DNA from: an uncultured Thermoplasmatales archaeon
Lineage (GTDB): Archaea > Thermoplasmatota > Penumbrarchaeia > Penumbrarchaeales > Penumbrarchaeaceae
DNA length: 64,000 nucleotides
Direction: 5' to 3'
Assembly (NCBI GenBank): GCA_963807965.1
Contig: CAWEDU010000017.1
Span: 207,452-271,451, forward strand
Shown: one piece after another, positions 53,113 to 54,966 of the stretch
How positions within the stretch are numbered: the stretch's first letter is position 1
How the letters are laid out: each line of letters opens with the position of its first letter
Program-made: the position numbers and the translations under genes
The notes under the pieces: model-generated
What the model was told of the DNA's origin: nothing
Databases searched by the model: none
The model's input: only the letters and a program-made list of their open reading frames with translations

Positions 53113-53131
53113 CTTGAGCGAATCGAACGTT
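53113..53131 (+). other. 5' half of the 16S processing stem (pre-rRNA excision helix, BHB-type). It pairs with 54683..54700.
   Basis: CTTGAGCGAATCGAACGTT is nearly perfectly complementary to AACGTTCGGTCGCTCAAG at 54683-54700, bracketing the 16S. Confidence 0.55.
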
Positions 53132-53169
53132 GTGTGCAGGAAGATGGAAAGTATATTTCTCATCTGCCA

Positions 53170-54647
53170 ATTCCGGTTGATCCTGCGGGAGGTTGCTGCT
53201 ATTGGGATTCGACTAAGCCATGCAAGTCGAGAGGGTTCGGACCCTCGGCAGACTGCTCAGTAACACGTCGATAATCTACCCTTAGGTCAGGGATAACCTC
53301 GGGAAACTGAGGATAATACTTGATAGGTGATTGATGCTGGAATGTCTTTACTCTGAAAGCTCCGGCGCCTAAGGATGGGGCTGCGGCCGATTAGGTTGTA
53401 GTGGGGTAATGGCCTACCAAGCCGAAGATCGGTACGGGCTATGAGAGCGGTAGCCCGGAGAGGGACATCTGAGACACTGAGTCCCAGCCCTACGGGGTGC
53501 AGCAGGCGCGAAACCTTTACAATGCACGAAAGTGTGATAAGGGGATCCCAAGTGCTCATGCACTTAGTGTAGGCTTTTGCTAAGTGTAAAAAGCTTGGCG
53601 AATAAGGGCTGGGTAAGACTGGTGCCAGCCGCCGCGGTAATACCAGCGCCCAAGTGGTGATCACTATTATTGGGCCTAAAGCGTCCGTAGCCGGTTTAGT
53701 AAATCTCTTGTGAAATCGTTGCGGCTTAACTGTAACGGCTTGCAGGAGACACTGCTAAACTAGAGACCGGGAGAAGTCAGAGGTACTCAGGGGTAGCGGT
53801 AAAATGCTATAATCCTTGGAGGACCACCAGTGGCGAAGGCATCTGACTAGAACGGGTCTGACAGTGAGGGACGAAGGCTAGGGGAGCGAACCGGATTAGA
53901 TACCCGAGTAGTCCTGGCCGTAAACGCTGCTGCGCTAGGTGTTGCGCTATCCTACGAGGATATGCAGTGTCGAAGCGAAGCTGTTAAGCTCAGCCGCCTG
54001 GGAAGTACGGTCGCAAGACTGAAACTTAAAGGAATTGGCGGGGGAGCACAACAACGGGTGGAGCGTGCGGTTTAATCGGATTCAACGCCGAGAATCTCAC
54101 CAGGGGCGACGGCAGGATGAAGGTCAGTCTGAAGAGCTTTACCTGACGAGCCGAGAGGTGGTGCATGGCCGCCGTCAGCTCGTGCCGTGAGGTGTCCTGT
54201 TAAGTCAGGCAACGAGCGAGACCCGTGTCCATAATTGCTACATGATTCACTCCGGGGATCGAGCACATTATAGAGACTGCTGGAAAACAGAGGAAGGTGC
54301 AGGCAACGGTAGGTCAGTATGCCCCGAATCCCCTGGGCTACACGCGCGCAACAATGGTAGGGACAATGGGATGCAACTCCGAAAGGAGAAGCTAATCCTC
54401 GAAACCCTGTCCTAGTTCAGATTGAGGGTTGCAACTCACCCTCATGACGCTGGAATCCCTAGTAATCGCAGATCAACATCCTCCGGTGAATATGTCCCTG
54501 CTCCTTGCACACACCGCCCGTCAAACCACCCGAGTAGGGTTTAGAGTGAGGCTGTAGATTTTTGTCTATGTCGAATCTAAGACTCAGTAAGGTGGGTTAA
54601 GTCGTCACAAGGTAGCCGTAGGGGAACCTGCGGATGGATCACCTCCT
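53170..54647 (+). rRNA. rrs: 16S ribosomal RNA, archaeal, complete (1478 nt), unlinked to 23S.
   Basis: 5' ATTCCGGTTGATCCTGC. The universal blocks GTGCCAGCCGCCGCGGTAATAC, AAACTTAAAGGAATTGGCGGGGGAGCAC, GCATGGCCGCCGTCAGCTCGT and TTGCACACACCGCCCGTCA are present. 3' GGATCACCTCCT. Confidence 0.95.
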
Positions 54648-54682
54648 AAGAAATTAACCTTATTGGATCCCTACGATCCATT

Positions 54683-54700
54683 AACGTTCGGTCGCTCAAG
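54683..54700 (+). other. 3' half of the 16S processing stem.
   Basis: Complementary to 53113-53131. Confidence 0.55.
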
Positions 54701-54717
54701 CACTTAATTCATCGTAT

Positions 54718-54744
54718 GCCGGAATGAAACCCCTTTCTTTTTTC
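54718..54744 (+). terminator. CGGAATGAAACCC motif followed by a T-run; a putative rRNA terminator or processing element (copy 1).
   Basis: GCCGGAATGAAACCCCTTTCTTTTTTC. The same core recurs at 54941-54966. Confidence 0.35.
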
Positions 54745-54940
54745 TTTGATTTACAAAAGAATCAATATGAGATTCGTAAATCAAAGTGCGCTTAATGAGA
54801 TGTAGAATTGTCGGTCTAATTAAGTTGGACCTTCACATCTGTGATGTGGAGGGCAGGAAAAAACCGAAACTGAAAGTTGTTTTTTCCTATGATCTCGAAC
54901 TTCTGATTCAATGAATTATTAACGAGAAGGAGTTACGAGG

Positions 54941-54966
54941 CCGGTCGGAATGAAACCCTTTTTTTT
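54941..54966 (+). terminator. CGGAATGAAACCC motif followed by a T-run (copy 2).
   Basis: CCGGTCGGAATGAAACCCTTTTTTTT, 220 nt after copy 1. Oligo-T is the archaeal termination signal. Confidence 0.35.

Follow-up and report, generated by a model that had tools for sequence, protein, structure and literature searches.

A stand-alone 16S rRNA unit of a Thermoplasmatota archaeon with a predicted bulge-helix-bulge processing stem and a 16S body that is very probably chimeric

The subject of this analysis is the 16S rRNA locus at 53170-54647 (+ strand) of a 64,000-nt stretch of contig CAWEDU010000017.1, referred to here as the window, with all coordinates given as positions within it. We consider it probable that the locus is an ordinary stand-alone 16S transcription unit, the sole 16S of a Thermoplasmatota archaeon, and that its 16S body is chimeric. 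For the body taken by itself (approximately 53187-54615), an origin as a chimeric or blended assembly product, and not as the organism's own gene, is very probable. By structure prediction, the flanks of the 16S form a pre-16S excision stem with a canonical bulge-helix-bulge (BHB).

Origin of the 16S body

The source genome is placed in the Thermoplasmatota by a single marker, SRP54, the homologues of which are 78-88% identical to the window protein and carry Thermoplasmatota as source name. The syntenic set consisted of the window, a congener (L084; same sequence as L085, GCA_965234725.1), L091 (GCA_964445525.1) and L093. Contig L084 is collinear with window positions 50210-54903 and is the source of P0002, an 83%-identical homologue of the PKD-domain protein encoded downstream of the 16S; L091 and L093 were reached through more distant protein homologues. 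In L084/L085, L091 and L093 the gene order is ABC ATPase, clostripain, small open reading frame (ORF) and 16S, followed by an unrelated convergent gene. The 16S of each is full-length, stand-alone and scores 1510-1530 bits with Rfam, and neither a 23S nor a tRNA was found after the 16S in these three contigs. Because three relatives keep the same arrangement without 23S, the unlinked state is, by gene order, conserved among relatives and not the product of a mis-join.

The 16S of the window can be divided into the following parts.

53170-54647, + strand: archaeal small subunit rRNA (16S), Rfam RF01959, model positions 1-1478, 1334 bits
53170-53186, + strand: 16S 5' terminus, native (Thermoplasmatota) in type, with no difference from L084 or L088 and with 14-mers private to the native type
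53187-54615, + strand: 16S body, mostly Woesearchaeota-like with few native patches (V1 helix 53225-53258), assigned by identity, informative sites and 14-mers
54616-54647, + strand: 16S 3' terminus, of the native type or shared with it, including native-type A54634

Membership of the archaeal 16S family is full-length by covariance model (1334 bits compared to a gathering score of 50). No other Rfam family scored above its gathering score in the window, ARAGORN found 0 tRNAs there, and blastn with the 23S of a relative as query gave no match; the span free of 23S and spacer tRNA covers 9.3 kb downstream and 53 kb upstream of the 16S. A reading made from the letters of this DNA (the sequence-only reading) had described the 16S as complete, followed by neither tRNA nor 23S, and unlinked in a manner typical of Thermoplasmata. 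The empty Rfam, ARAGORN and blastn searches, the SRP54 lineage and the three stand-alone syntenic relatives agree with the last two statements, and a 23S directly downstream, which would have spoken against them, was seen in none of the three independent relatives. Completeness holds for model coverage (1-1478) but not for the 16S body, the sequence of which is anomalous.

The anomaly is evident from comparison to the congener. By identity to L084, the ABC gene (91%), clostripain gene (92%), small ORF (98%) and promoter with leader (96.6%) are all closer than the 16S (83.3%). An orthologous 16S should be at least as conserved as its flanks among congeners, and the reverse was found, with the leader at 97%, the genes at 91-92% and the 16S at 83%. 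The 16S of the native relatives are 89-95% identical to one another and approximately 75% identical to Woesearchaeota. At 192 clade-informative sites, the window 16S carries the Woesearchaeota type 143 times and the native type 40 times, compared to 7-20 native sites in real Woesearchaeota-type sequences. Painting with 14-mers revealed that stretches private to the native type are limited to the first 17 nt, the V1 helix (53225-53258) and a few patches, with the remainder Woesearchaeota-type or unmatched. Mispairs were detected at both outer switches of type: in helix 1, G53175 (native) faces G53187 (Woesearchaeota-type) and, in helix 45, G54615 (Woesearchaeota-type) faces A54634 (native). Over the whole gene, 26 of 442 consensus pairs are broken compared to 4-14 in Woesearchaeota-type comparison 16S examined by leave-one-out, a level of standard pairing below that of the comparison genes. 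The Rfam score of 1334 bits is likewise the lowest of all 16S examined (native, 1510-1530; Woesearchaeota-type, 1391-1477).

Close relatives of this sequence were sought in public collections. When a genome collection was scanned with a 32-mer of the 16S, the only matches were DPANN and 'Methanosarcinales' metagenome-assembled genomes (MAGs) at no more than 86% identity, and relatives found by a second scan with a 5' signature were again at or below 86%; thus, no 16S relative of greater than 86% identity was found in these scans. The matches of the 16S-based scans were of Woesearchaeota, Pacearchaeota and other DPANN types. In metagenomes, no match was obtained for the 3'-terminal signature, G.A mismatch included.

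The most direct evidence comes from sample ERR11523668, in which contig L001 is 100% identical to window 57248-60815. Contig L088 from the same sample is 99.84% identical to window 50103-53186 over 3084 nt, including the window-specific C53167. From 53187 onward, by contrast, L088 continues into a native 16S that is identical to L084 at 339 of 339 positions. The leader of the same strain is therefore linked to a native 16S in an independent assembly, and the body in the window is very probably chimeric. By this interpretation, rRNA reads of co-occurring archaea would have been merged during metagenome assembly or polishing to give a mosaic of mainly Woesearchaeota-type (DPANN) sequence; as to the route, our guess is blending at the consensus or polishing stage. 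A clean mosaic of two parents, native plus one Woesearchaeota-type, was considered and rejected, as no segment is at least 98% identical to a native 16S save short patches.

Several points weigh against this account. The native and Woesearchaeota types share only 11 nt at the 5' and 18 nt at the 3' outer junction, stretches that are too short for a simple de Bruijn jump at k>=21. Core variable regions other than V1 are not native-like, which speaks against a simple polish of a native gene. An independent contig across the 3' junction was sought and none was found. For the transcription unit as a whole, the promoter, terminators, EndA cleavage and read-through described below are all predicted, and the covariation counts are small (four genomes for the stem, two for the hairpins).

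The short shared k-mers (11 and 18 nt, below what a standard de Bruijn jump needs) also favor a genuine Woesearchaeota-like body, by which the strain would have swapped most of its 16S with DPANN-type rDNA through recombination between the conserved termini while keeping its native promoter, leader, trailer and BHB stem. The switch points do lie inside universally conserved terminal stretches open to homologous recombination, and the flanks pair with one another as expected of one locus. We nonetheless hold such a swap to be improbable, as the independent assembly of a near-identical strain joins the window-type leader (C53167) to a native 16S, the body is a multi-switch mosaic with a native V1 helix within Woesearchaeota-type sequence, its broken pairs are 2-6 times those of Woesearchaeota-type comparison 16S (26 versus 4-14), its Rfam score is the lowest, and no known 16S matches it above 86% identity. 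If true, it would be a natural inter-phylum 16S replacement in a free-living Thermoplasmatota archaeon, beside congeners with the native gene. A contig wrongly joined past the trailer, with a 23S truly following the 16S, is very improbable. Metagenome assemblies are weak at rRNA regions (PMC8997704) and the 16S body of this contig is already suspect, but relatives assembled independently from other samples share the clostripain-small ORF-16S order and the unrelated convergent gene without 23S. In addition, the trailer, hairpin array and second motif block (see below) are collinear with L084 save indels, and a repeat of 13-24 nt is too short to confuse an assembler. We give almost no credence to the possibility that the organism is itself a DPANN/Woesearchaeota-like archaeon with its own fast-evolving 16S and a recently broken-up operon. 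In its favor, the 16S is matched best by Woesearchaeota (85-86% identity), with which it shares signatures GTCGTCACAAGG and CTGCGGGAG, and 16S-tRNA-23S operons are linked in 25 of 26 Woesearchaeota-type relatives, such that the unlinked state would look derived. By contrast, SRP54 puts the genome in the Thermoplasmatota, syntenic congeners with flanks 91-97% identical have a quite different 16S (approximately 75% identical to Woesearchaeota), and L088 displays a native 16S on the strain's own leader. A Woesearchaeota placement with an atypical unlinked state had been our first conclusion from the 16S scans and was overturned by the syntenic relatives.

Irregularities were also observed in the 16S loci of other contigs. 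Contig L089 (Logan SRR21856589, approximately 1700-1826) follows the native 16S to about 53513 and is then unlike both native and window sequence. The change comes directly behind the conserved CCTACGGGG…GCGCGAAA and has the appearance of a further chimeric join within the 16S at the same locus. The 16S of L091 (5205-6671) is 89-92% identical to those of L084 and L093, which are 95% identical to each other, and the leaders of L091 and L093 are 80% and 70% identical, respectively, to that of L084; the L091 pattern reflects either rate variation or another partly blended 16S. Among the Woesearchaeota-type loci, spacer tRNA matches of odd length were noted (L009 4400-4506, L039 984-1097, L038 4143-4238, L030 3078-3135 and L032 2980-3037), being 96-114 nt or only 58 nt with the whole model covered; those of 96-114 nt are probably intron-containing tRNA-Ala missed by ARAGORN. 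The 16S of L018, L064, L049, L045 and other DPANN-type contigs aligned to the query in one piece only from position 732, which suggests that they hold large insertions (introns).

The processing stem

Leader and trailer were joined by a short linker for folding and compared to 200 dinucleotide shuffles. By this approach, the leader/trailer stem was predicted at -78.9 kcal/mol (z = -11.6), a value matched by none of the 200 shuffles, and its pairing spans approximately 50 bp. The elements, in minimum free energy (MFE) folds unless otherwise indicated, are as follows.

53047-53056, + strand: basal helix 5' strand GAAAGGGGTT, pairs with 54728-54737 (AACCCCTTTC) in MFE folds and as inverted repeat I4
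53057-53087, + strand: leader hairpin GGAGA...TCTCC at a three-way junction, in the MFE fold of four genomes, with 5 outer pairs invariant
53090-53109, + strand: outer helix 5' strand of TCCG, an unpaired A and CATACGATGAA, then AGTG (folds)
53110-53112, + strand: 5'-strand 3-nt bulge ATA (AAA in L093), in MFE and centroid folds
53113-53131, + strand: inner helix 5' strand, a 19-mer with A53122 bulged and two compensatory pairs (folds)
54664-54680, + strand: small trailer hairpin TGGATC-CCTAC-GATCCA, with compensatory change of GGATC/GATCC to GGGTC/GACCC in L084 and L091
54683-54700, + strand: inner helix 3' strand (folds)
54701-54707, + strand: 3' strand CACT of the central 4 bp, then 3-nt bulge TAA (TTA in relatives) (folds)
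54708-54723, + strand: outer helix 3' strand, made up of TTCATCGTATG, an unpaired C and CGGA, with CGGA also opening motif copy 1 (folds)

Within this stem, AGTG (53106-53109) pairs with CACT (54701-54704), and these 4 bp are invariant in the four genomes. They are set between two bulges on opposite strands, of which the 3'-strand bulge is TAA at 54705-54707; both bulges measure 3 nt in all four genomes despite sequence change. Outside lies an outer helix of 11 bp (53095-53105 with 54708-54718), continued by TCCG (53090-53093) with CGGA (54720-54723), and inside lies a helix of 9 bp. The arrangement of two opposite-strand 3-nt bulges, 4 bp apart and enclosed by helices, is that of a canonical BHB. 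The fold architecture is identical in the four genomes. In the basal helix, 9 of the 10 bases of the 5' strand are invariant, the exception being T53055, which is C in L091. Across 52 stem pairs of the four genomes, 94% of cells form standard pairs, and 5 double-sided compensatory pairs were detected (3 in the outer and 2 in the inner helix, all in L093), a count reached by 0 of 500 shuffles and compared to 0-1 in slid controls.

The sequence-only reading had singled out the helix of 53113-53131 with 54683-54700 as the expected excision helix and as a BHB substrate, and had proposed that the flanks be folded. Folding upheld the excision stem, which is stable and has a canonical 3-4-3 BHB, and the pairing itself (9 bp, bulged A53122, 9 bp); the BHB does not lie in that helix but adjoins it on the outside. 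By the model of circular pre-16S formation by EndA and RtcB in Haloferax, Sulfolobus and Methanococcus (PMC7038931, PMC7714728, PMC10515664), EndA would cut both bulges and RtcB would ligate the ends. The pre-16S would thereby become a circle of approximately 1.6 kb that extends about 58 nt beyond either end of the 16S, and leader and trailer, ligated to each other, would be released as a by-product. It was also observed that leader positions 53128-53154 are 70% complementary to a 3' part of the 16S, 54490-54516 (27 nt, inverted repeat I2), within the suspect 16S body.

Repeated element and hairpin array in the trailer

Exact copies of the 13-mer CGGAATGAAACCC are limited to two sites in the window, 54720-54732 and 54946-54958; with up to 2 mismatches allowed, 9 matches were found compared to 2.4 expected. 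Together with their T-runs, the two copies form a 24-nt direct repeat (21 of 24 identical) at a spacing of 226 nt.

54720-54743, + strand: motif copy 1, CGGAATGAAACCCCTTTCTTTTTT, in which AACCCCTTTC (54728-54737) is the basal helix 3' strand, followed by T6 (54738-54743)
54744-54941, + strand: hairpin array with H1 at 54744-54786, H2 at approximately 54790-54825, H3 at 54830-54852, H4 at 54855-54888 and H5 at approximately 54894-54939
54946-54969, + strand: motif copy 2, the T8 run of which spans 54959-54966; the convergent gene ends 45 nt away

Copy 1 is made up of CGGA and AACCCCTTTC, the 3' strands of two stem helices (partners 53090-53093 and 53047-53056), and the T6 run, which is likely the first terminator. 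At the same site, L093 has AAAACCCCTTTCTTC...T7, and the element is degenerate, partly kept, in L084 and L091. Because L093 holds it at the same position, copy 1 is judged to be ancestral, with conservation limited to the pairing part and the AATGA not conserved. Copy 2 has a different history. The block of 54918-54973, which includes approximately 28 nt upstream of the copy, is orthologous (80%) to 9427-9482 of the reverse complement of L084, where the only motif copy of L084 is located, 4.7 kb further downstream and past a gene of 1494 amino acids (aa) absent from the window. Window copy 1 and this distal copy of L084 are identical at 24 of 24 positions. The simplest reading of these sequences is that insertion of DNA into the old terminator, in an ancestor common to the window lineage and the congener, duplicated the trailer end and so gave rise to copy 2 as a paralogue; the window lineage would then have lost the 1494-aa gene, or L084 gained it. 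The proposal of the sequence-only reading that the two copies are tandem terminators or processing signals is thus retained in part. Two copies with T-runs are present, but copy 1 is a strand of the stem and not an independent signal; copy 2, a duplicate and the ortholog of the single distal copy in the congener, carries in its T8 run the likely final terminator.

It is possible, though we regard it as unlikely, that foreign DNA was inserted into the 16S terminator and that the motif copies are the resulting target-site or att-like duplication, not functional tandem terminators; the inserted DNA would comprise the hairpin array and the 1494-aa gene, which L084 retains. As an insertion would leave it, the repeats bracket a segment (226 nt in the window, 4.9 kb in L084) that is absent from the outgroups L091 and L093, which have the stem, T-runs and convergent gene without the hairpin array. 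The L084 sites that match the two copies bracket the 4.9 kb with the 1494-aa gene, the proximal copy being degenerate and the distal intact, and the 24 of 24 match of window copy 1 to that distal copy fits as well. By contrast, no integrase or transposase, terminal inverted repeats or further copies of the spacer were found in the window or the loci, 24 bp is long for a transposon target site, and the hairpin array is under structural selection and so not inert. Such an insertion would moreover account only for how the copies arose and would leave room for a terminator role today. Other explanations were tried and rejected. The match of L081 to the motif is a chance T-run, and readings of GGAATGAAACC as a C/D box or kink-turn found no D box at the right spacing and no Rfam match, with AATGA not conserved in L093.

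The five hairpins in the 200 nt between the copies fold better than 200 of 200 shuffles (z = -4.5, 0 as good). H3 includes the hairpin CTTCACATC-TGT-GATGTGGAG that had been noted earlier between the copies and is indeed present, at 54831-54851. Covariation was assessed for the first 160 nt (four of the five hairpins) between the window and L084 only. At 74% identity and 44 consensus pairs, 35 pairs are unchanged, 3 are changed on one side, 6 on both sides and 0 are broken. H3 has a conserved G-U pair, in place of which the opposite strand would have a C-A mismatch, and this favors the + strand RNA as the one that folds. A permissive Rfam scan (E<=10) of 52800-55100 gave noise matches only, outside the trailer hairpins, and no tRNA, C/D-box sRNA, 5S or other known RNA. 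No significant similarity of the trailer to the spacers of relatives, the leader, the 16S end or the rest of the window was found. On this ground, the trailer was judged to be neither a tandem duplicate of a 226-nt unit nor the remains of a tRNA-Ala/23S stem nor a repeated mobile element. A similar array was found nowhere else in the window or loci, and L091 and L093 are without one. We read the array, by its modeled structure, as a genus-specific structured 3' trailer, made when transcription reads through the first T-run (a run that is degenerate in L084). Beyond copy 1, such transcripts would include all five hairpins before terminating at the T8 of copy 2. The array could serve in 3'-end protection, in insulation from the convergent gene or as part of a stable leader-trailer ligation product.

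Upstream region, neighboring genes and known systems

Further features of the locus are as follows.

52666-52815, + strand: small protein gene upstream of the rRNA promoter, listed as an ORF of 49 aa and also called in L084, L091 and L093
52852-52860, + strand: distal TATA-like box TTTTTATAT, inside a block conserved in the four syntenic genomes
52933-52945, + strand: purine-rich stretch, like a TFB recognition element (BRE), and TATA block AAGGGTTATATAT, near-invariant in four genomes while the surroundings vary
55012-56025, - strand: convergent gene for a PKD-domain membrane protein (Pfam PKD_4; homologues P0001-P0006)

Archaeal promoters have a consensus of BRE plus TATA box, and on this ground the block at 52933-52945 is likely the proximal 16S promoter with a start site approximately 25 nt downstream; the TTTTTATAT box is a possible distal promoter. 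Transcription would start from the BRE/TATA block, some 200 nt before the 16S begins. The small ORF keeps its amino acids through synonymous-type DNA changes in the four genomes. Its conservation reaches upstream of the listed ATG (52612-52815, + strand; …LEEAICHIEIS-MEDDEIVAKLQSDLGGIREFRS…), and the true small protein is probably of approximately 65-70 aa with a different start. The 680 nt upstream of the 16S (52491-53169, covering the small ORF, promoters and leader) are 95-98% identical to L084, compared to 91-92% for the adjacent protein genes.

On the opposite strand, the 3' end of ORF 55012-56025 is 365 nt past the 16S end. The sequence-only reading had this distance right; the gene ends there, however, and does not begin. 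Exact-protein look-ups of both neighboring genes gave no match. Secreted or membrane-anchored proteins are abundant nearby (50691-52490, 61288-62871, 47946-48773, 55012-56025, 59506-60618, 5862-8129 and 42232-45279), and the neighborhood includes two clostripain (C11) paralogues and several PKD/Ig-like/TSP3 proteins; huge gingipain-like (C25) proteins are found in relative L093 as well. A protein-degrading lifestyle fits the secreted-protein content of the neighborhood. The SRP54 ORF (27429-28862, - strand) is listed at 397 aa with a GTG start, compared to homologues of approximately 447 aa. The missing N-terminal residues (…TVLDSLGESLRGTLKK…) are in frame upstream, with no ATG, GTG or TTG after the preceding stop, and P0033, a 98%-identical homologue, is likewise of 397 aa; use of a non-canonical start codon is possible, as is loss of the start.

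Among known systems, the closest in organization is the unlinked rRNA of the Thermoplasma acidophilum type, reportedly described by Tu and Zillig in 1982, Ree and Zimmermann in 1990 and Brewer et al. in 2020. The window resembles it in its lone 16S unit without tRNA-Ala or 23S, its Thermoplasmatota lineage and an arrangement kept across relatives, and Thermoplasmata are a known clade with unlinked rRNA genes (10.1101/705046; PMC8997704). The 16S body resembles the chimeric or blended 16S of MAGs in its conflict between 16S and protein lineage, mosaic of types, excess of broken helices and lack of a close match; PMC8997704 draws attention to the problem of chimeric 16S in MAGs, with reference to Yuan et al. 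2015 and Gruber-Vodicka et al. 2020. It differs in that the outer junctions lie 17-32 nt from the gene ends and the native flanks are intact, leaving a contig that looks seamless, with a stem that still pairs. The 16S of this contig is thus unfit for classification, as it would label a Thermoplasmatota archaeon as a Woesearchaeota-like DPANN, an error that is easily missed; classification against SILVA, as suggested earlier, would mislead. At the 3' end, the T6 and T8 runs resemble archaeal oligo-T intrinsic terminators in lying on the transcribed strand after a gene, with T6-T8 equivalents in L091 and L093. By contrast to such terminators, the 13 nt before the first T-run are part of the processing stem and not of a terminator hairpin, and the terminator role is predicted.

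The stem differs from what has been published for the phylum. The 16S stem of T. acidophilum was reported to be without a BHB (PMC7038931), and both circular 16S and the motif were absent from surveyed Thermoplasmatota (PMC12918454), whereas the window lineage carries a canonical BHB backed by covariation; the lineage is therefore a mild exception among Thermoplasmatota. Similarly to the stems of Haloferax, Sulfolobus and Methanococcus, that of the window has a long leader-trailer helix and two opposite 3-nt bulges 4 bp apart, approximately 58 nt beyond the mature ends. Unlike in those archaea, the window 16S, known here from sequence, stands outside a 16S-23S operon, and the ligated leader-trailer product would be a free RNA not attached to pre-23S and would carry the conserved hairpin array. 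An unlinked Thermoplasmatota 16S can thus retain a canonical BHB, which bears on whether circularization of pre-16S needs operon linkage.

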